Source: Bacteroidota bacterium
Lineage (GTDB): Bacteria; Bacteroidota; Ignavibacteria; Kapaibacteriales; NICIL-2
DNA: 38,026 bases
Reading direction: 5' to 3'
Assembly: GCA_046052705.1 (NCBI GenBank)
Contig: JBJOLU010000013.1
Span: 1-38,026, forward strand
In this document: positions 8,529-36,386 of the stretch, one piece after another
Layout: every line of letters starts with the position of its first letter
Position numbering within the stretch: the stretch's first letter is position 1
The notes under the pieces: model-generated
Seen by the model: the letters and a program-made list of their open reading frames with translations, nothing else
What the model was told of the DNA's origin: nothing
The model's database searches: none
Program-made: the position numbers and the translations under genes

Positions 8529-10577
8529 ATGCCACATCAATCACACACACTTATAGCTCGTACAGCCGAAGCGGATTTTCTTCGATCGGCAAAAGAGAGT
8601 GCGCGCGCCGCACGCGGCCGTGTACTGGTGGTGAAGGGAGAGAGCGGATTCGGAAAATCCCTTCTTATGCAAACAGTTTGCGATGAGCTCGTAGCAGAGA
8701 TGCAGGTACATGCAGTTCTTCTGGAATGCGAAGCTCCCATCGGCAAGCTTAGTGTGTCGTCTCTGCAAACCATGCAGCCCTTTGTGCGTGCGCTTGAAGC
8801 ACTTGTGCGCCTGAACAGCAGTGCAGCCAAGAAGAGACTGGCAATGAACATCGGTCTTTCGGTGTTGGGCTTGATACCCTTTGCCGGCGCCATCTTCGAC
8901 ATGACCAAAGAAGTTATGCGAGACCTTCGGGAGTATCGCAAGGAGCAGGAGAAATCCGGTGCGAAGAGCGCGATAGACACCGTGATGAACGAACTCCTGC
9001 AATCGTTTGTAGCCATTGCCGCCGAGAAGCCTTTTGTGTTGTTCTTGGACGAAGCGCATCGCATGGATGCTGAGTCGTTCCGCTTTTTGTCGTTCTTGCA
9101 AAGCTCGCCTACGCCATTGCCCTTTAGTGTGGTGGTAGCTATTCAACAAGCCGAAGCCGAGAAAAACAACCCGGCATGTATGGCATGGCTGAACGGCATG
9201 AGCGCAGAGCAATGCATCACCCTTGGCGCTTTTGATGCCGATGCAGTGCGCGCGTGCGTGCGCTCGTACTTTCCGGGCAAGACATCACTTGCCGGTTTGG
9301 ATGATTGGCTTCTGCGCCGCACAGCGGGCGTGCCCATAGCCGTATGCGAGTACCTGGAGTATTTCACGTTGCACTCTCCGTACAGAGACGACGGCAGCTT
9401 AGATACAGAGGTGCTGGCTTCGCAGGCAATTCCCGTATCGCTGCAAGCGTTGCTCTCGAGAAACATAGAAGGCCTTTCGGAGCAAGACGCAAATCTTCTG
9501 GCTATGTGCAGTGCGGAGGGTCGAGAGTTCAGTGTGTATGTGCTTGCACGACTGATGAACACCGATGTATTAAGCGCGCTTCGCGAGTTGAAGTCGTTGC
9601 AGTTTCGCACCGGTTTGATACGCAGCACGGGGCCACAGCCCCGGTACGGCATGAAGACTACCGTGTATGAGTTTTCGCAAGCGGTGCACCACACCTTGTT
9701 CTATGCCAAGCTAGAGCACGAGGAGCGTATAGAGCTACACGATCGCATCGCGCATATTCTGCGCGAGTGCTTTGATGCCGCCACAGACGAATTGCTACAA
9801 CAACAATTAGCGCCCTACATTGCAGCGCACGCTCTAGAGGCAGGCGATGAAGACACTGCACGCGCAATGCTCATGGTTACCGCACAAGGCGCAGCAGATC
9901 TGGGCTACACGGGAGTGATCGACGAAGTAACTTCCGTGATTCGTGATTTCCGCGAAGCGCAAAGTGAGCAGGTGCTTCAGGAGCTGTCTACTCTTCGTGT
10001 GGACGCTGATGCAAGCGACAGCGACAATACAACTACGTTGCCCGGCAGCGGCACACGCGAGCTCGACGCCGCGTGCTACGCGGTGCGAGACAAAGCTCTG
10101 GATCTATTCCTTGGCGGTGATGCAGGCGGAGCAGCAGAGCTGTTGCAGAAATTCTGTGAGCAATGGGAAGGTTTACTTAGTGTTCGAGACTTCGTGCTCT
10201 TGTATGCAATGCGAGCGCGGTGCGAATCGGTAGCAGGCAGGCACGAGCTTGCTGCAGACCTGGTAAAGACAGCCCAAGAGATGGTACTCCGCGCGCCGAA
10301 TGCGGATTCGCAGTGCATACTGGATAATGTGGCCGGGACTGTGGCCTATAGCCGGGGTAAATCTGCCGAGGGCATGTATCATTTGCAGCAAGCGGCTCGT
10401 GCTGCTGCATCCGCCGGCGACGATTGCCGGCTCCTTACGGTGACGAACATTGCGTTTGCGGTTCAATCCACAAATCAACGGCAGTACCGCATCTTCCATC
10501 GCATGGCGCATCAGTTGTGCAGTGCCTTGCACTATCATGAATTTCGCGCAGCTATACTGGAACATAGCGCGCGTTGA
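8529..10577 (+). CDS. P-loop STAND / AAA_16-type ATPase with winged-helix and helical-repeat (TPR-like) C-terminal region
   Basis: 682 aa. Walker A is VVKGESGFGKSLL (aa 34-46) and Walker B is FVLFLDEAHRMD (aa 169-180). A winged-helix-like segment typical of MalT/AAA_16 STAND proteins follows (LSEQDANLLAMCSAEGREFSVYVLARLMN...YEFSQAVHHTLFYAKLEHEERIELHDRIAHIL). The last ~250 aa are Ala/Leu-rich helical repeats. There is no N-terminal effector domain. Confidence 0.7.
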   Translation: MPHQSHTLIARTAEADFLRSAKESARAARGRVLVVKGESGFGKSLLMQTVCDELVAEMQVHAVLLECEAPIGKLSVSSLQTMQPFVRALEALVRLNSSAAKKRLAMNIGLSVLGLIPFAGAIFDMTKEVMRDLREYRKEQEKSGAKSAIDTVMNELLQSFVAIAAEKPFVLFLDEAHRMDAESFRFLSFLQSSPTPLPFSVVVAIQQAEAEKNNPACMAWLNGMSAEQCITLGAFDADAVRACVRSYFPGKTSLAGLDDWLLRRTAGVPIAVCEYLEYFTLHSPYRDDGSLDTEVLASQAIPVSLQALLSRNIEGLSEQDANLLAMCSAEGREFSVYVLARLMNTDVLSALRELKSLQFRTGLIRSTGPQPRYGMKTTVYEFSQAVHHTLFYAKLEHEERIELHDRIAHILRECFDAATDELLQQQLAPYIAAHALEAGDEDTARAMLMVTAQGAADLGYTGVIDEVTSVIRDFREAQSEQVLQELSTLRVDADASDSDNTTTLPGSGTRELDAACYAVRDKALDLFLGGDAGGAAELLQKFCEQWEGLLSVRDFVLLYAMRARCESVAGRHELAADLVKTAQEMVLRAPNADSQCILDNVAGTVAYSRGKSAEGMYHLQQAARAAASAGDDCRLLTVTNIAFAVQSTNQRQYRIFHRMAHQLCSALHYHEFRAAILEHSAR

Positions 10578-27117: not shown

Positions 27118-28878
27118 TCAATCCTCTTCCTCTTCATCCACGGAAAATGCTATGCGCGAATACACAACGTAGCGCTGTGTTTCTTTGCGCATGCGAGCGC
27201 GTTGCAGATTGAGCGAAGCGTGGCTATTGGCACCTCGAACAAACACGATGGGTTCATCTCTGCGCTCTGCTTGCGCGAGAGCAGAAGCATTGGCAGAGCT
27301 GTCGGTAGTAAGGCGCAGAACGGTGCATCCATAGGCGGGCCGCCAGGGCTGAGAATGCGTCCAGCCTGCCCATCCCTGCGTGTACCACGATAGTTGTGGC
27401 ACCAATGTATCGCCCGAAGCACCGCCTCCGATATCGGCAGAACCATCGGGCGGTAACACCACAGTGAACAATCGCTGCTGCGACTGCTCCAGCCAAGCAC
27501 CAACCTCTTTGGCGCCATCGCGCTCGCGGCGCGTGCTTGTGGTATTCAGCCACGCGCAGTGCAGCACGAGTATCACCGGCAGCACCATGCGCGTGCTTCG
27601 CATCATGGCGTTGTTCATTGATACTGCCGCGCCCGGCGAAATCAAACGCAGTATACCGGCCGAGAGAAACAACGCGATTATCGGCAGCATCACCGGTGGG
27701 TATGCGGAACTTGAGGAAGCGAGTCCGAAACCCGCGCCGTTAGCGGCGTTCAGGTCCGACACCTGCACAAGTCCCAACAGACGAAATACCACCAAGAATA
27801 CCATGAAAAGAAAGGCCGCGCTCAACACGCGCGACCGTACATACATTCGGAACACGTTGTAGCGATTGCTCACAGTGAGAATCACCAACGGCGGCAGAGC
27901 AAACACCACACGGGTGGAGTCGCTTATAGGCAGAGCAAACAATGCCAGCGCACCCATAGCCCACACGTGCAGTAGTTTATCGGATTCATTGTAGGGTTGG
28001 AGGTCCTCGTCGGCACGCTTGGGACGTACATACATGATCACCGCAAGCAATGCCACCACAGCAAGCGGCTGCGAGATTAGCAGGTCGGTCACAGACGTTG
28101 CTATTGCCTGCAGAGAAAAGGCATGCGCTGTATCCATCACCACGGAAGACGCGAGCATAGCGCGAAGCGCAAGCGAGCCCTGAACAAAAATCATATGTAC
28201 ATACCAGCACAGAGCAATGGCAATGCCCACAAGGCCGCCCACTACTACCTGTGCAGACTCACGCCGGTGCGTGTAGAGCAGCAGCAACATTGCAGCCGCG
28301 CCAATAACTACATCGAGAAGTATCGCGCAGCACACCGCCACAGCATACACGGCGCTCCAGGTGTAGCGCTCACGCATGTCGTAGGCATGCACCGCACGTA
28401 GCACTGCCAGCACCGATAGCATGAAGAATACAACTGCAGGCACATCCGGCTGCGCGCTACGCGCAAAATGATTCCACATCAAGCTGCCCGCAAGCAGCAC
28501 CGGAGCCGGCATGGCAGAAGATTCGCCAACAAAAAAAGCAGTGATATAGTACACCAGCACCAATGCAGCTACCCCACTGAGCACACTCCATAAGCGTAGC
28601 ATAAAAGGTTTGTTCCAGCCCGCGGTGCGCACGAATGCTGACTCCGCCCATACAAGCAGAGGCGCTTGCGTTGCGTTTGTCACGCCGCCGGGTGTGTAGG
28701 TAGACTGATCCGTCCACGCTTGTTTCTCGGCTGTTGCCTTGGCTCGGAACGCAACAATTGCTTCAGTGTCCGAAAGCTCCTTTGCGCCCAATCCCAAGAA
28801 CAGCAGCAGGCCGCAGGTAATAATGACAAGTATGATATTCTGACGTTGCACGTCCTCGTTTTCCGCGTACATAGGCAC
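27118..28878 (-). CDS. Polytopic membrane protein, GT-C (ArnT/PMT, family 39-like) glycosyltransferase
   Basis: 586 aa with at least 10 hydrophobic helices in the N-terminal 400 aa and an early acidic loop motif (KELSDTEAIVAF) resembling the GT-C DE/DxD loop. A soluble C-terminal domain follows. The assignment is by architecture only. Confidence 0.5.
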   Translation of the reverse strand: MPMYAENEDVQRQNIILVIITCGLLLFLGLGAKELSDTEAIVAFRAKATAEKQAWTDQSTYTPGGVTNATQAPLLVWAESAFVRTAGWNKPFMLRLWSVLSGVAALVLVYYITAFFVGESSAMPAPVLLAGSLMWNHFARSAQPDVPAVVFFMLSVLAVLRAVHAYDMRERYTWSAVYAVAVCCAILLDVVIGAAAMLLLLYTHRRESAQVVVGGLVGIAIALCWYVHMIFVQGSLALRAMLASSVVMDTAHAFSLQAIATSVTDLLISQPLAVVALLAVIMYVRPKRADEDLQPYNESDKLLHVWAMGALALFALPISDSTRVVFALPPLVILTVSNRYNVFRMYVRSRVLSAAFLFMVFLVVFRLLGLVQVSDLNAANGAGFGLASSSSAYPPVMLPIIALFLSAGILRLISPGAAVSMNNAMMRSTRMVLPVILVLHCAWLNTTSTRRERDGAKEVGAWLEQSQQRLFTVVLPPDGSADIGGGASGDTLVPQLSWYTQGWAGWTHSQPWRPAYGCTVLRLTTDSSANASALAQAERRDEPIVFVRGANSHASLNLQRARMRKETQRYVVYSRIAFSVDEEEED

Positions 28879-28927
28879 CTTGCACTTGCTTGTGTAATTT
28901 GGCGCAAACTACAACCGAAGGTGCGTC

Positions 28928-29569
28928 ATGAACATTGATATTCTCCCCGTCGTGGCTGCTTTGGCTGCCTACCTTGTGGGCTGCTTTCCCAGCTCCTATC
29001 TCTTTGTACGCCTTGCATCCGGAAAAAATGTTCTGCACGAGGGCACCGGCAACATGGGCGGCATGAATAGCTACGAAGTAACCGGCAAGCGCAGGGTGGG
29101 AATTGCTGTTGCCCTGTTTGATGCGGCAAAGGGCGCGGTGGTATGCTGGGGCGCGCATGCTCTGGGAGCAACGCCTACAGTGGTTGCCTACTCTGCTGTT
29201 GCAGTGGTATTGGGCCACTGTTACAATGTGTTTTTTAGGTTTCGCGGTGGGCGCGGCATTGCCACAGCCGCAGGCGTTGGTGCGGTCATCAATCCCTTGC
29301 CCTTGCTGCTGTGGGCCTTGATGTACCTGACAGGGTACTATGTGATTCGGCGGGATGTACATGTGGGAAGCATCACGGGAATACTCGGACTGCTTGTGCT
29401 TACCTACACCACGCCCACCACACTGCTGAACTTAACGATGCTAATGCCACCCTTTGATGTGGGCCTGCTCAAAGGTGTGATCTACATGATGTGCATTATC
29501 ATGTTCTTGCGCCACATCGAACCAATGCGCGCACTGTTCGAGCGCATGCAAAACGACATCTCTGAGTAG
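28928..29569 (+). CDS. plsY: Glycerol-3-phosphate acyltransferase PlsY
   Basis: 213 aa. AYLVGCFPSSYLFVRL...GTGNMGGMN...AVALFDAAKGAV...VVLGHCYNVFFRFRGGRGIATAAG matches the PlsY motifs. Confidence 0.88.
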   Translation: MNIDILPVVAALAAYLVGCFPSSYLFVRLASGKNVLHEGTGNMGGMNSYEVTGKRRVGIAVALFDAAKGAVVCWGAHALGATPTVVAYSAVAVVLGHCYNVFFRFRGGRGIATAAGVGAVINPLPLLLWALMYLTGYYVIRRDVHVGSITGILGLLVLTYTTPTTLLNLTMLMPPFDVGLLKGVIYMMCIIMFLRHIEPMRALFERMQNDISE

Positions 29570-31220: not shown

Positions 31221-31262
31221 TCTTCAGAGATTCATCTTCAGAAATTCATCTTCAGAAATTCA
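31221..31262 (+). repeat. Three tandem copies of a 14-nt unit ending 10 nt before the dnaX start codon
   Basis: TCTTCAGAGATTCA (31221-31234), TCTTCAGAAATTCA (31235-31248) and TCTTCAGAAATTCA (31249-31262). Confidence 0.9.
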
Positions 31263-31272
31263 AGCATCGATT

Positions 31273-33186
31273 ATGTCAGCAAGCACTCAAGAATCTATGG
31301 ACTCAATGCAGACGGCACCTGCATATACGGTTACGGCGCGCAAGTATCGCCCGCAGCTGTTTGGCGATGTGGTGGGTCAGGAGCATATCTCTACAACGCT
31401 CACCAACGCTATTACGCAGCATCGCGTGCATCATGCGTATTTGTTTTGCGGACCGCGGGGCGTTGGTAAAACCACGACTGCGCGGATTTTCGCTCGCGCA
31501 TTGAATTGCTCGAATCCTATAAGCGGCGTGGAGCCGTGCAACGAGTGTTCATCCTGCTTGGATATTCTTAATGGCAGGTCTCTGGATGTGATAGAAATAG
31601 ACGGTGCTTCGAATAATTCTGTGGACGACATCCGCAAGCTGCGCGAGAACGCCAAGTACCCGCCGGTGCACGGCAAGTACAAGATGTATATCATCGACGA
31701 GGTGCACATGCTCTCCACTTCGGCCTTCAATGCCCTGTTGAAGACACTGGAGGAGCCGCCCCCGCACTTGCTGTTCATGTTTGCCACAACCGAATCGCAC
31801 AAGGTTCCTGCTACTATCGTAAGCCGCTGCCAGCGTTTTGATTTTCGGCGCATGCAAATTGAGTCCATCGTACATCACCTGGCATCTATTGCTGCAAAGG
31901 AACGCGTGGTGATTGATGAAGAGTCTCTTATCGCTATTGCAAAAAAGGGCGACGGCTCCATGCGAGACTCGCAGAGCATTTTTGATCAAGTGCGCGCCTT
32001 TTGCGGAGACACTATTGCCTTCAGCGAAGTGGCCAACGCGCTGCATTTATTGGACGAAGAGTTTTTCTTTGCTATCAGCGATGCCATGCTGGATAAAAAC
32101 ACCGCCATCATGTTCGGACTGGTGGATCAGGTGGTGAGCAAAGGCTACGACATTCACGAGTGCTTGAGCGGAATGCAGATGCACTTCCGGAATATTCTGA
32201 GTGTGGTATCTACCGGATCCACACATCTGATTGAGTCGTCGTCGGCAATACTTGAGCGCTATACCGCATCGGCCGCGCGCTTCCGCCAGGCAGAGGTGCT
32301 GCGCATCATGAGCATGATCTCCAGAACGGAACAACAGCTAAAGCTCTCAGCGCAGCCGCGAGCACTCTTCGAAGTTCTCTTGGTGAGTTTGGCATCGCTG
32401 GATGATATCGTAGAGATCTCCGAGCTGGTGCGCGAGATTCGCGAAGCAAAGAAAGGCGGCACCAAAGTGAATATGTTGAGTTCCGCCGTTCATGCCACCA
32501 CGCCGGTACCACCGCCCGAGGTAATTGCTAAAAGAGCAGCCGCTGCGGAAGCACGCACCATGCTTGCAACGGCAGCTGCGTCGAGTGCTGCTTCAGCTGT
32601 GCAGACCCGGCCCATTGCTGCAACGCGTGTGGCAACGCGGCCTGCAGCGACAGCAACTACCTCCGTACGCAATACAGCGCCTGCTACCGACTCTGCTACC
32701 GACTCTACTACCGACTCTGCTACCGGCACGGTGAGCGCGTCTGTTTTAGAGAATCGTTGGGATGAGTTTGTGAGCTCATTGCCACCATCGTTGGCCGGAG
32801 TGAAAATGGCGTTGAAGACAGGTCAGTATAGCATGGTGGAATTCTCCGACGCCGACATACATGTAGTGGTGCGCTCGGAAGAGTTTATGTACAAAGACAT
32901 TTCCGCTTCCAAGGCAACATTAGGAACTCGTCTGGAGAAATTCTATGGCTCTCACGTTCGTGTGCGTGTGTCGTACGCCGGTGCCGAAAACATTGATGCT
33001 ACCCCGTCTGCAGGCGATGCAACTGTGAGTGCCGATACCGCAGCAGCAGTAGCGGCATCGCAGGGGAATTCAGCTCATGGTAGTGTGCATAGTTCTGCGC
33101 AGGGCGCGCCTTCCGAGAAATCTACCGTTGAGCGCATTCTGGTAGAGGCCTTCGGTGCAAAGAAGATTCCGCTTCCCGGAACCTAA
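31273..33186 (+). CDS. dnaX: DNA polymerase III subunit gamma/tau
   Basis: ORF 30865-33186. The real start is probably ATG 31273 (MSASTQESMDSMQTAPAYTVTARKYRPQLFGDVVGQEHI). It has Walker A GPRGVGKTT, the Zn module CNECSSCLDILNG, Walker B IIDEVHML, the SRC motif VSRCQRF and sensor-2 GSMRD. A low-complexity Ala/Thr/Ser tau linker follows. Confidence 0.93.
   Translation: MSASTQESMDSMQTAPAYTVTARKYRPQLFGDVVGQEHISTTLTNAITQHRVHHAYLFCGPRGVGKTTTARIFARALNCSNPISGVEPCNECSSCLDILNGRSLDVIEIDGASNNSVDDIRKLRENAKYPPVHGKYKMYIIDEVHMLSTSAFNALLKTLEEPPPHLLFMFATTESHKVPATIVSRCQRFDFRRMQIESIVHHLASIAAKERVVIDEESLIAIAKKGDGSMRDSQSIFDQVRAFCGDTIAFSEVANALHLLDEEFFFAISDAMLDKNTAIMFGLVDQVVSKGYDIHECLSGMQMHFRNILSVVSTGSTHLIESSSAILERYTASAARFRQAEVLRIMSMISRTEQQLKLSAQPRALFEVLLVSLASLDDIVEISELVREIREAKKGGTKVNMLSSAVHATTPVPPPEVIAKRAAAAEARTMLATAAASSAASAVQTRPIAATRVATRPAATATTSVRNTAPATDSATDSTTDSATGTVSASVLENRWDEFVSSLPPSLAGVKMALKTGQYSMVEFSDADIHVVVRSEEFMYKDISASKATLGTRLEKFYGSHVRVRVSYAGAENIDATPSAGDATVSADTAAAVAASQGNSAHGSVHSSAQGAPSEKSTVERILVEAFGAKKIPLPGT
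32683..32726 (+). repeat. In-frame 12-nt tandem repeat in the tau linker
   Basis: GCTACCGACTCT x2, ACTACCGACTCT and a partial GCTACCGG, encoding ATDSATDSTTDSATG. Confidence 0.85.
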
Positions 33187-33502
33187 GAAAACCTGCATTG
33201 TAGCAGCATGGAACATGAAAACCGGGCAACTGCATCTGCACGCACTCGTACTCGCTCCTAACACTTTGTCTGTGCAATGGCTCGATCATTATCGCTCATC
33301 GTGACTCCCATTTTCAGTGGTCTGAGCAATTTCTATGCTCCAATCCCTGCGCCGAAATGGATACTATTGATGGATTTACATTCGTTCATACAGATGTGAG
33401 GTTTTTGTAAGTTGTATTGGCATAGATTTTGATAATGTCCAAAGAGCCAGGCATTAGCTGCATTGTATAGAACGGTGAATTGTACCTAAGCGGAAAGTCG
33501 TC

Positions 33503-35785
33503 ATGCTGGTAACTAGTCAGGACATACTTCGCGAATGCTCGGTAGCACTCGATACTCTGCGGGATGAATCATCAGATTATGATCTTCGTGCGCACATTTT
33601 AGCTTTACTTGCTCTATCCAAGGCGCATCTACTTCCACCACATCAACAGTCTCTTGCAACCCTTGGAAGTAATCTGAATACTGCTATTGGCTCGCTCGAA
33701 CGCATGGATCCAATGTTGCGAAACATCAGAACATTGATTTCGTTCGAGAATCTTCCGGATGGAAGGCCTATAGAGCCAACACTTCTCAAGGCGGCCATAG
33801 CAGCGATATCATCCGTACGCACCGACGATGCGTTGCTCATCTCTCGTGCTGCCGAGGCCTTCTGCTTTCAGCACACCACAAAAGACGAATCATGTTTCCT
33901 TAACCCTTTACTGTTGCGTTTAGTTTCTCTGCATGGCGGCGCAACGATACTTGATATGCAATGCGGGTCGGGACTTCGATCTATTCAGGCGCAGCGCCGT
34001 GTGTTCGAGAGCAGTTCTGGTGTATTACTTGCTCGATCTTTGCGCTGTTCTATGGAAGAAGACGACAAAGACGCGGAATGCAGAGCAAGACTCCTGGCAT
34101 ACTTGTTTGGACTTACTGCAACAATGTCTCCTGCCGGAACGGCACTCGCTCCCAGCCTACATGTGCAAAGAGAGTTCGATCGCATGTTTGTGGAAACACG
34201 AGACCGTGTGCCCGACATTGCTGGAGTTCTAAGAAGAATGGGCGAACACACCATATGCGCACTTATACTATCAGACATTGCAGCCGGATGCATGACGAAG
34301 AGGGATTTGTCGTTGCTTTTAGACCGCGATGTATTGGATTGCGTTGTTACACTGCGAAGCAGCGAACGGACACCATGGCACCTGATGATTCTAAGGGGAC
34401 GCAAACCTGTTGAACATAGACATCGTGTTTTGTTTTATGACCACATCGATCCTTTCGATGGTTTGAGCATCGACGCTATGAGTGCTGAGACAATTGCAGA
34501 GGCATATGATCGGTTTAGTAGCACGGGACGTCATTGTCGTGTGTTGCATCGTAACGAAGTTATTGCACTTAGCGACAGTTTCCTATCTGACAATGAATTT
34601 GGCATCAGAGTGAAAAATGAAACGGCAAATGTGCTCGGTGTGCGGGAGTTCGAAGAGTTGGATGAACGATTACGTGAACGCGGTTTTGATATTCATTCTC
34701 TATTCCGATTCAACTCCGGAGAAGCTACATACGAACCCGTTATTAACGACGTCCGCCTGCTTCGTACAGCAGTATCTTCCTCACCGGGATTGAAAAATGC
34801 CGAAGTACGCACGCACTATGCATTTGCAGTTTGGTGGAACATGAGTGCGCCTCTTCTAGAAGTTACCGATGCAGGTATTGGCGCACTGCACGATTCTTTC
34901 GAACGTGATATCTGTAAAGAAGGCGTATTGACTCCGCTGCAGGCGCGAGCCATTTTCCGTGATTGGTGGTGGGAAATAGATGATGATAGGGCAGTACTTT
35001 CTCTTTACGGCGCTGCTGTGGTTGCACACAAGTGGATAAATGCCTTGATTTTGGAGGCAGAGCAAAGAGAAAAGAACTTTTGGTTTGAGCTTGATATGAT
35101 GCGAAGATCCTTGCTAGAGTTATTGTGTCCGGATGTGATTCGTAAATACATTTCGCACAATGAACAAGCAGAGCTTCTTTCTCAAAGTATTGATGAACTC
35201 GCGGAGCAGGCCCCGCAAAATCTGGCTGAACTTTTGATACGTCGGAATGAGTATAATGTTACCACGAACACTCCTCAGTCAAGAAAGTTCGAAATTGCCG
35301 CTCGTCAGCGTATTACGGAGTTGAAGTCTATAGTGACTCAAATCAAAGAGCATATGACCAGACTTCATACTCATGCAAAAGATCTCCGCACGGACGAACA
35401 GCGCACCACACAGTTTGACGACACAACTTCGTTGCAGGACGATGTAGGGACTATGCTAAAGAAAATTGTTGCGGCACAGAGTGAGGCGAAGCTTCTTGAA
35501 AAGACTCTTGATCCGCTAATAGAGCTTCAACGAAAGCGCGATATTGAGTTGTTAGCACTGCAGGAACTCAGTCATCAGCTTCTTCCCGATCTCCGATTGG
35601 TTCGGAGTACGTTTACTCCACGAAATTCCCGTTCATTGGTACAGTTGCAATTCAGAGATGCATTGTCCAGACGCCTTGAGACAGCCATTGTGGCAAACCG
35701 CGATGCAATTATCTACGACTTAGAACAAGTGTGGCATCGCTTCGATGAGGCTGCTGCTTTATCGGCAGTGGAAGTAGCCGAGTAG
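33503..35785 (+). CDS. Orphan HsdM-like (N6-adenine DNA methyltransferase fold) protein with a degenerate catalytic motif and a long helical C-terminal extension
   Basis: 760 aa.
- The N-terminus is HsdM_N-like (LDTLRDESSDYDLRAHILALLALSK).
- The motif I equivalent is ATILDMQCGSG (33947-33973).
- FDRMFVETRD (34175-34204) sits where HsdM proteins have FDxxxxNPPF.
- The region downstream is ICALILSD...LLLDRDVLDCVVTLRSS...WHLMILRGRK...VLFYDHID. It mirrors the HsdM layout of g-aaivlP, L-e-leaVi-LP, ilvl-k-K and vlfiDas.
- The C-terminal ~350 aa are heptad-like and charged.
The alignment was made by eye from memory of the family. Confidence 0.55.
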   Translation: MLVTSQDILRECSVALDTLRDESSDYDLRAHILALLALSKAHLLPPHQQSLATLGSNLNTAIGSLERMDPMLRNIRTLISFENLPDGRPIEPTLLKAAIAAISSVRTDDALLISRAAEAFCFQHTTKDESCFLNPLLLRLVSLHGGATILDMQCGSGLRSIQAQRRVFESSSGVLLARSLRCSMEEDDKDAECRARLLAYLFGLTATMSPAGTALAPSLHVQREFDRMFVETRDRVPDIAGVLRRMGEHTICALILSDIAAGCMTKRDLSLLLDRDVLDCVVTLRSSERTPWHLMILRGRKPVEHRHRVLFYDHIDPFDGLSIDAMSAETIAEAYDRFSSTGRHCRVLHRNEVIALSDSFLSDNEFGIRVKNETANVLGVREFEELDERLRERGFDIHSLFRFNSGEATYEPVINDVRLLRTAVSSSPGLKNAEVRTHYAFAVWWNMSAPLLEVTDAGIGALHDSFERDICKEGVLTPLQARAIFRDWWWEIDDDRAVLSLYGAAVVAHKWINALILEAEQREKNFWFELDMMRRSLLELLCPDVIRKYISHNEQAELLSQSIDELAEQAPQNLAELLIRRNEYNVTTNTPQSRKFEIAARQRITELKSIVTQIKEHMTRLHTHAKDLRTDEQRTTQFDDTTSLQDDVGTMLKKIVAAQSEAKLLEKTLDPLIELQRKRDIELLALQELSHQLLPDLRLVRSTFTPRNSRSLVQLQFRDALSRRLETAIVANRDAIIYDLEQVWHRFDEAAALSAVEVAE

Positions 35786-35828
35786 TATAGGCCGCGAGTA
35801 GAGACCACTCCGGTAGATCGTGCCTGCG

Positions 35829-36386
35829 TCAATCTTCGCCGCACACCAAGGCTTCCGCGCGCTGCAGCGTAGCACCAAGATCGTCGTTCACAATCACTTC
35901 GTCGAACTCGTGACGGAAAGACATCTCCATTTCCGCGCGCTCCAAACGAACGCGAAGCTGATCTTCGCTTTCGGTGCTGCGTGAACGCAACCGAGATTCC
36001 AGAATAGTAAGGTCGGGCGGTGCAATGAACACCAGCAGTGTATCCTCCGGGAAGGCACGGCGCAGAGACAGCGCGCCTTTCACATCAACATCAAAAAGTA
36101 TAGTCTCGCCGGCATCAATTGCCCGTTGTACTTCTGAGCGCAATGTGCCATAAAGATTACCGAAGATCTCCTCGTACTCGATCATGTCTCCCGAACCCAC
36201 CCGATCCACAAACTCCTGACGTGTCAGAAAAAAATAATCGCGACCGTGCTCTTCGTTCGGGCGCTTGGTGCGTGTGGTAGCCGAAATACTGAACCGCCAA
36301 TCGGGATGAACCGAAAGCAAATGCCGCGCCACCGTGGTTTTACCGGCGCCGCTGGGTGCAGAAAGTACAATGAGATTTTTTCGCAC
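35829..36386 (-). CDS. gmk: Guanylate kinase
   Basis: 185 aa with a GTG start. P-loop LSAPSGAGKTT, then SATTR.KRP.E..G.DYFF, and synteny downstream of yicC. Confidence 0.92.
   Translation of the reverse strand: MRKNLIVLSAPSGAGKTTVARHLLSVHPDWRFSISATTRTKRPNEEHGRDYFFLTRQEFVDRVGSGDMIEYEEIFGNLYGTLRSEVQRAIDAGETILFDVDVKGALSLRRAFPEDTLLVFIAPPDLTILESRLRSRSTESEDQLRVRLERAEMEMSFRHEFDEVIVNDDLGATLQRAEALVCGED

Follow-up and report, generated by a model that had tools for sequence, protein, structure and literature searches.

A restriction-derived pseudoenzyme with an unusual population-genetic signature between dnaX and gmk in Kapaibacteria

The stretch of DNA analyzed here (the window) is 38,026 nucleotides of contig JBJOLU010000013.1 (assembly GCA_046052705.1) from a Bacteroidota bacterium of the order Kapaibacteriales, and the subject of the analysis is a single open reading frame (ORF) of 760 amino acids that occupies positions 33503-35785 of the forward strand between dnaX and gmk. 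The encoded protein is a full-length, colinear homologue of the long form of HsdM, the methyltransferase subunit of type I restriction-modification (R-M) systems, that is non-functional as a member of that family. The gene stands at an old locus and is carried as deeply divergent alleles on near-identical genomic backbones, and the product is best described as a restriction-derived pseudoenzyme with an unusual population-genetic signature. Its identity as an inactive, exapted descendant of a long HsdM and its evolutionary history are jointly proposed with high confidence. The explanation given below is considered reasonably probable when taken as a whole, and the part of it that assigns the protein a conflict or sensor role is offered tentatively.

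Searches with the ORF protein alone return nothing usable from Pfam (E-values up to 10), NCBIfam or the Protein Data Bank (PDB), and nothing significant from the last of these. No Pfam or TIGR methyltransferase model (PF02384 N6_Mtase, PF12161 HsdM_N, TIGR00497) scores above threshold, and TIGR00497 gives no match. The PADLOC models yield one weak match (E 4e-5, 20 bits), in which residues 385-624 fall on the tail of a type I methyltransferase model with 834 positions (PDLC03031). Close homologues number only nine among 5.8 billion clustered proteins; they derive from Candidatus Kapaibacterium or "Chlorobiota" metagenome-assembled genomes (MAGs), and each is annotated "hypothetical protein". 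A profile built from the nine retrieves 68 proteins out of 1.84 billion representatives. The nearer matches (P0010-P0018) are about 710-850 amino acids long and share the architecture of the query, while the farther ones (P0019, P0026, P0031, P0038, P0041, P0047, P0050, P0053 and others) have 850-1000 amino acids and contain HsdM_N and N6_Mtase domains with Pfam E-values of 1e-84 to 1e-102. Query residues from about 271 to 750 match residues from about 358 to 870 of these intact long HsdMs, through a C-terminal extension of roughly 400 residues. Alignment of the profile of the query's clade with that of the intact HsdMs using hhalign gives a probability of 100% and an E-value of 1.8e-48 over 728 columns, which run from the N-terminus through the whole tail. 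Repeating the word-indexed search for homologues with the wider alignment adds no further proteins. In P0043, a protein of 1290 amino acids encoded outside the window, an nSTAND1 NTPase is fused N-terminally to an intact long HsdM, which would be an unusual union of a STAND NTPase of the defence type and a type I methyltransferase.

An AlphaFold2 (AF2) model built from a 40-sequence alignment has a predicted local distance difference test score (pLDDT) of 86.5 and a predicted template modeling score (pTM) of 0.78. It contains both the N-terminal helical domain and the gamma-class Rossmann domain of the HsdM fold. The top 11 Foldseek matches in the PDB are all HsdM chains, with E-values of 1e-11 to 3e-7. 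The best matches comprise 3lkd, PacII (7vs4/7vru), 3khk, 2okc, 3ufb, 7eew and EcoKI (2y7c), at E-values of 1e-11 to 5e-6. A first AF2 model, made with nine sequences, had a disordered core (pLDDT 64.6) and returned only coiled-coil noise from Foldseek. A preliminary description, prepared from the DNA letters alone, had recognized the layout of a type I M subunit; this is corroborated by the profile-profile alignment to intact HsdMs and by the motif comparison described below, and the profile and structure searches likewise recover the HsdM fold, with the residues VETR placed at motif IV. Among viral structures (BFVD), a Hyperionvirus adenine methyltransferase of 1020 amino acids (A0A3G5A8Y1) gives a structural alignment to the model that extends across 776 columns (E 8.5e-7), and tailed long HsdM-like proteins may thus occur in giant viruses as well.

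The loss of catalytic capacity is evident from a motif table in which 15 proteins of the query's clade are set against intact long HsdMs. Residues 1-125 (33503-33877, forward strand) form an HsdM_N-like helical domain, the best-conserved segment of the clade, with LPPHQQSL at residues 44-51. Residues 126-375 (33878-34627, forward strand) are identified by the motif table and the profile alignment as a Rossmann-like former methyltransferase core. An insert of about 80 residues that is present in the N-terminal domain of intact HsdMs is deleted in the query's clade. At motif I, ILDMQCGSGLRS aligns to IYDPCVGSGGML; the motif reads ILDMQCGSG in the query (residues 149-157), and its form is DPxxGSGGML in intact proteins, DMQCGSGLR in the Kapaibacterium subclade and degraded in P0010-P0018. 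The GQ(D/E) of motif II is represented by an acidic residue in most clade members (E185/E186 in the query), while the GDT of motif III has become AGT in the query, with loss of the aspartate. Motif IV, NPPF in intact proteins, reads VETR in the query (residues 230-233), where FDRMFVETRD aligns to F(D/H)xV(L/I)xNPPFSQNY. The motif is lost in 15/15 clade members, as is a loop of about 30 residues behind it. Farther downstream, LDCVVTLRSS, MILRGRK and RVLFYD align to LEAVISLPP, CILVLRAK and KVLFINA, respectively. Because all 15 members lack motif IV, the loop behind it and the aspartate of motif III, the ORF protein is predicted to be incapable of canonical N6-adenine chemistry. The replacement of FDxxxxNPP(F/Y) by FDRMFVETRD and the probable inability to methylate had both been proposed in the preliminary description and are upheld by these alignments.

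Conservation within the clade is lowest across residues 126-240, which correspond to the old S-adenosylmethionine (SAM)-binding and catalytic half of the core. It is highest in the N-domain motif LALLxLKRxDxLPPHQQSL, in residues 411-450 around a pair of adjacent tryptophans (WW) and in tail residues 621-670, which carry LHxxAK, FD(D/S)TxxLQDE and PAQSExxLLE. The WW motifs are common to inactive and intact proteins, whereas LPPHQQSL, LHxxAK, FD(D/S)TxxLQD and AQSExxLLE occur in the clade alone. This distribution of minimum and maxima shows that the pocket has been released from constraint and that the N-domain and tail have gained it. An earlier suggestion of SAM sensing finds no support across the family, whose deeper members have a degraded motif I and whose conservation is at its lowest in residues 126-240.

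Residues 376-760 (34628-35782, forward strand) form a helical tail that is common to long HsdMs. The C-terminal 385 residues are almost wholly helical in the AF2 prediction, with three predicted helices of 38-62 residues (592-629, 642-703 and 706-759), and W444, W445, W488 and W489 are invariant or nearly so across the 40 sequences, inactive and intact alike. The last 30-40 tail residues of intact long HsdMs are absent from the ORF protein. No PDB structure covers the tail, and PDB matches to the intact profile stop near residue 480. Genomic context was inspected for one intact long HsdM, P0019 (locus L012), which passes the hsdM equivalog model TIGR00497 and lies in an operon of an Xre-type helix-turn-helix (HTH) gene, hsdM (856 amino acids), hsdS (393 amino acids) and hsdR (1090 amino acids). 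Since intact HsdMs of 850-1000 amino acids carry the same tail, and one of them sits in an hsdM-hsdS-hsdR operon, the tail is inherited from a working subfamily of long type I M subunits and is not a new fusion. This replaces the earlier picture of a coiled-coil scaffold joined to a methyltransferase-derived protein. The tail had also been called charged and heptad-like; its helical nature stands, and its charge is only mildly elevated (about 28%, against 21-27% elsewhere in the protein). At L012:560-11553, the long-HsdM operon is followed by YgjP-like and Piwi-domain (Argonaute-like) genes, an arrangement that resembles a defence island.

The gene occupies the same slot in related genomes. 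Orthologues of 40-77% identity lie between dnaX and gmk-yicC at seven loci (L001, L003, L006, L017, L021, L022 and L037), and at two more (L023 and L024) only the gmk-yicC side of the slot is visible. Because orthologues down to 40% identity hold this position, the gene is evidently ancestral at the dnaX-gmk slot and does not belong to an inserted island; a recent island insertion was considered and rejected on synteny. Horizontal acquisition of the gene, as first proposed, is therefore not upheld. The slot is occupied in relatives, whose alleles have typical GC content, and only the allele of the present genome departs from genome-typical composition. The more distant members P0010, P0013 and P0017 are encoded elsewhere, beside unrelated genes and with no common neighbour. 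No relatives of the family turn up when tblastn is run on phage and plasmid collections or when IMG/VR is scanned, and the inactive clade, found only in Kapaibacteria-type MAGs, is in this sampling specific to Kapaibacteria.

The lack of HsdS, HsdR or other partner genes alongside, already remarked upon in the preliminary description, extends to the relatives. When the window and 10 clade-member loci are searched using tblastn, the L012 HsdS and HsdR proteins match nothing at an E-value below 1, a result that covers these loci only. Pfam identifies only housekeeping genes around the ORF, and gene lists show no hsdS or hsdR within 8-10 kb of the gene in relatives. Tabulating the neighbours of the homologues likewise reveals no conserved partner. 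Gene content on either side of the ORF varies by strain, with extra unknown ORFs or an epimerase gene. An Fcl-like NAD-dependent epimerase/dehydratase is encoded between dnaX and the ORF in strains carrying allele B, defined below (L021:519-1589 and L037:8702-9772, both reverse strand), and the same position is filled in the deep-branching relatives L001, L006 and L017. An epimerase remnant was sought in the spacer at 33187-33502 of the window and was not found. In L017, a Chlorobiota/Kapaibacteria MAG, an AbiD/Abi_2 gene (L017:11639-12583, reverse strand; Pfam Abi_2 E 2.9e-57, PADLOC AbiD E 1.8e-75) stands in the interval separating the orthologue from gmk and is surrounded by unknown ORFs.

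Comparison of the dnaX-to-gmk interval among close relatives shows that the shared slot holds deeply divergent alleles. Three classes are distinguished: allele B (L021/L037/L024), allele C (L003/L004/L005) and the allele of the window. The three backbones are 94-97% identical in nucleotide sequence and their flanks 94-99%, and the flanking proteins (gmk, yicC, plsY and an aldehyde dehydrogenase, aldh) are 96-100% identical, with proportions of synonymous differences (pS) of 0.05-0.23 and GC contents at third codon positions (GC3) of 55-62%. The ORF protein of the window, in contrast to these flanks, is 77% identical to that of allele B and 65% identical to that of allele C, with 71% between B and C. 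Here pS is 0.68-0.81 between classes, at or near saturation, and GC3 is 43% in the window, 61% in B and 51% in C. Allele C resembles the forms present in L022 and L023, two distant genomes of 60-62% GC, more closely (75-77%) than it resembles that of the window. A metagenome scan based on YicC retrieves L024 as its sole close locus, and the allele there is B.

The largest divergent block, that between the window and allele C (L003), extends from 31850 to 35870 with approximate edges, the left one inside dnaX. The block between the window and allele B (L021/L037) runs from 33190, just past the dnaX stop codon, to about 35600, and that between B and C starts within the 3' part of dnaX and reaches the 3' end of gmk. 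In sliding windows, identity drops from about 95% to 50-73% inside the block and returns to 96-98% beyond it, and pS in codon windows is 0.7-0.9 inside and 0.05-0.28 in the flanks. The 3' two-thirds of dnaX fall inside the block only in the comparison with allele C, whereas the whole of dnaX lies in a 96.8%-identical stretch in the comparison with L037. The ORF is the sole segment common to the three pairwise blocks, and nowhere else in the 9-17 kb of backbone that can be aligned is there deep divergence. The epimerase indel belongs to the allelic block. Contigs at least 99% identical to the window allele occur in at least four metagenomes of different studies and span both junctions. Chimeric assembly is ruled out by these independent contigs crossing both junctions, and hypermutation is ruled out by the identity of at least 99% across four metagenomes from four studies.

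The saturation of synonymous sites indicates old allele classes and not fast protein evolution alone, and the comparisons together show very old, discrete classes exchanged among close backbones by homologous recombination. The low GC content of the window ORF is accordingly best read as a mark of homologous import of a divergent allele and not of the gain of a new gene, since the alleles differ in GC3, pS is saturated and the breakpoints differ by pair. Allele B looks like the resident form because it has backbone-like GC3 and keeps the epimerase gene, as do deep-branching relatives. The window allele looks like an import because its GC3 is low and neither the epimerase gene nor a remnant of it is present. 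More generally, a local drop in GC content may be the trace of one allele replacing another at a long-established locus and need not signal the insertion of a new gene.

The family is maintained as intact ORFs close in length (760-766 amino acids). L022 and L023 provide a clean estimate of omega, as synonymous divergence between them is equal in target and flanks. The proportions of nonsynonymous (pN) and synonymous differences are 0.103 and 0.60, corresponding to an omega of about 0.09 after correction, and the gene is evidently under purifying selection. A pseudogene was rejected on these conservation data. The gene also appears to be transcribed. Four river metatranscriptomes contain contigs at least 99% identical over the ORF at a depth similar to that of its neighbours, although carry-over of DNA is possible, and in three of the runs a contig starts at 33458-33466. 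A putative promoter-like motif, TTTGTAAGTTG, lies on the forward strand at 33404-33414 and is conserved in five otherwise unalignable spacers. In the window, L003, L021 and L023, and with one mismatch in L022, it precedes the start codon by 99-167 nucleotides, and it may be a Bacteroidota-type promoter element. A scan for sigma-70 promoters and terminators gave a chance-level result.

The proposed explanation for these findings is that the ORF protein would act without methyl transfer, as a scaffold or a sensor, by means of the constrained surfaces of its N-domain and tail; in its ancestors, such surfaces bind the partner subunits S and R and clamp DNA. The likely setting would be conflict with phages or mobile elements, for example through sensing of foreign DNA or, in the manner of a decoy, of anti-restriction proteins, with an effector possibly encoded elsewhere. 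Deep alleles on near-identical backbones are usual where selection is frequency-dependent, for example in genes for specificity subunits, receptors and defence. That the allele classes centre on a single gene would accordingly point to frequency-dependent selection of the kind typical of conflict loci, and the presence of deep alleles in close strains suggests a role in phage conflict. Further circumstantial signs are the AbiD gene in L017, the strain-variable flanking genes and the precedent of the Ronin system described below, and together they make conflict a candidate role. Still more speculative, and doubtful as it stands, is the notion of a single-gene, HsdM-derived immune sensor in the core genome of a freshwater lineage, working without methylation, S or R and kept under long-lived balanced polymorphism. 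It would be a similarly bold step to regard its allele classes as older than the species and shuffled by recombination, by analogy with the polymorphic immune receptors of eukaryotes.

Several observations weigh against this explanation or parts of it. Apart from the weak type I methyltransferase hit, the ORF protein matches none of the PADLOC defence models, and these models reveal no partners. No conserved partner gene accompanies the clade members outside the dnaX slot, and neither an effector domain nor a conserved small ORF was found; spacer ORFs of 20-64 amino acids lie in sequence that is unalignable between alleles. At most loci the gene stands amid housekeeping genes with no defence island, and the association with AbiD is a single case. 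Crude 50-codon windows never give a pN/pS above 0.44, and the diversity therefore lies between allele classes and does not amount to detectable positive selection. The 40-sequence alignment used for AF2 included intact HsdMs, so that the fold match backs up the sequence homology but is not independent of it. Finally, the Kapaibacterium subclade keeps motif I (DxxCGSG) and the motif II acid, and residual nucleotide binding is conceivable.

The foremost alternative, although an unlikely one, is that the protein serves as non-catalytic partner or regulator to a type I system elsewhere in the genome, where it would join or compete with an active complex of HsdM, HsdS and HsdR. It could then be a restriction-alleviation factor or a pseudoenzyme partner, with alleles expected to co-vary with the system in question. 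The protein does retain the N-domain and the parts by which canonical enzymes contact HsdS and HsdR, discrete allele classes fit co-adaptation with variable R-M partners, and PacII places two different M subunits on one S subunit (PMC9613975). Both PacII M subunits are active, however, and provide no precedent for a dead partner. Moreover, the gene is kept across a bacterial class, whereas R-M systems are usually transient, and no hsdS or hsdR lies within the 38 kb analyzed here or within 8-10 kb in any relative, which is a statement about loci and not about whole genomes.

A second alternative, held to be distinctly improbable, is a housekeeping structural protein that has a coiled-coil adaptor and is associated with DNA or the replisome, its diversity being the product of neutral recombinational imports and fast drift under weak constraint. 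The position next to dnaX, the core-gene surroundings and retention over deep divergence would suit such a protein, as would the long coiled coils and the weak SMC-like matches of homologue P0010, and in one comparison the divergent block takes in the 3' part of dnaX. Yet an omega of about 0.09 does not indicate weak constraint, other Kapaibacteria carry the family away from dnaX, and random imports are unlikely to centre the sole deep block on the same gene in three pairwise comparisons with differing breakpoints.

A still-active methyltransferase, or another SAM-dependent enzyme with a non-canonical site, is highly improbable. The invariance of D151, C154, G155, G157 and E185 in the Kapaibacterium subclade and the confidently predicted Rossmann fold speak for such an enzyme, but NPPF, the loop and the motif III aspartate are gone, the deeper members have a degraded motif I despite keeping the other conserved motifs of the family, and no Pfam or TIGR methyltransferase model matches above threshold. 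A decaying type I R-M remnant, that is, a pseudogene in the making, would account for the lost catalytic motif and partners but is effectively refuted by full-length ORFs of 760-766 amino acids at 40-77% identity, an omega of about 0.09, the new clade-specific invariant motifs and the detection of transcripts.

The proposed non-enzymatic descendant of HsdM can be compared with three known systems. Long HsdM itself (P0019; TIGR00497, PF12161 plus PF02384 and the PADLOC model MTase_I PDLC03031) shares full-length colinearity, the N-domain, the Rossmann core, the tail of roughly 385 residues and the WW motifs. The ORF protein differs in lacking NPPF, the loop behind motif IV, the motif III aspartate, about 80 N-domain residues and the last 30-40 residues of the tail and, unlike functional HsdM, it has no HsdS or HsdR neighbour at its locus and fails the Pfam and TIGR models. 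The second system, PacII M1M2S (PDB 7vs4/7vru), is a non-canonical type I methyltransferase with diverged M paralogues in one complex (PMC9613975). It ranks with the best matches, in structure and in sequence, to the HsdM part of the ORF protein, but its M subunits are both active, are encoded with S and R, and neither is long-tailed. The third, Ronin (HsdS, HsdM and RonA), serves as a decoy for anti-restriction proteins and does not need methyltransferase activity (bioRxiv 10.1101/2023.04.06.535777). Like the ORF, it is an R-M-derived module without HsdR, and it has been proposed to sense anti-restriction proteins; it requires HsdS, is linked to a membrane effector of 61 amino acids and has an HsdM with NPPF (bioRxiv 10.1101/2023.04.06.535777). 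As the ORF locus contains neither hsdS nor a conserved small ORF, the likeness to Ronin is one of possible logic only. No published description of the inactive HsdM clade was found in the literature searched. The family thus represents an uncharacterised case in which a type I methyltransferase subunit is reused as a non-enzyme and long kept across a bacterial class. A core, syntenic and constrained gene that exists as deeply divergent alleles on near-identical backbones is an unusual pattern, and it makes the function testable. If the conflict role is true, these proteins would constitute a novel type of sensor derived from restriction systems.

The surrounding locus has the layout outlined in the preliminary description, as ORF calls and Pfam verify. 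The dnaX gene (about 31273-33186, forward strand), identified by its clamp-loader domains in Pfam, is followed by a spacer of 316 nucleotides (33187-33502; 44% GC), of which only one short motif can be aligned with the spacers of other alleles, and then by the ORF (33503-35785, forward strand), which is supported by the ORF call, profile alignment and the AF2 and Foldseek results. The ORF ends 43 nucleotides from the stop codon of the convergent gmk gene (35829-36386, reverse strand; PF00625), where the divergent block has its right edge, and yicC lies beyond gmk. A ybaB- or recR-like ORF, whose absence had been pointed out from the letters, follows dnaX neither in the window nor in any related locus with called genes that was inspected. 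The AT-rich character of the segment is also confirmed. At 47.4% GC, against 52.5% for the window overall, the ORF has the lowest GC content of all 2283-nucleotide stretches in the window, and its GC3 of 43% compares with 55-62% in gmk, yicC and aldh. The other genes of the window are housekeeping genes by Pfam, among them yidC, pyrD, plsY and genes for a penicillin-binding protein (PBP), an aldehyde dehydrogenase and an M1 peptidase. Scans for tRNAs and Rfam families find none in the window, and Rfam finds none in the spacer at 33187-33502.

Some minor features of the window and its relatives were also recorded. A protein of 682 amino acids encoded at 8529-10577 (forward strand) has an N-terminal AAA_16/AAA_22 ATPase domain, no further recognisable domain and no PADLOC match. 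In L037 and L003, which have close backbones, CCP_MauG and PhoX genes adjoin plsY and span about 4.3 kb in L037 (L037:203-4083). At 28878-28928 of the window, PMT_2 lies directly against plsY without them, which constitutes a second strain-level indel. Otherwise identical metagenome contigs are separated by in-frame-sized indels in dnaX at 31221 and 32681 (14 and 12 nucleotides left out, respectively) and likewise by a cluster of small insertions at 33081-33091, and the low-complexity C-terminal part of DnaX differs in length between populations.

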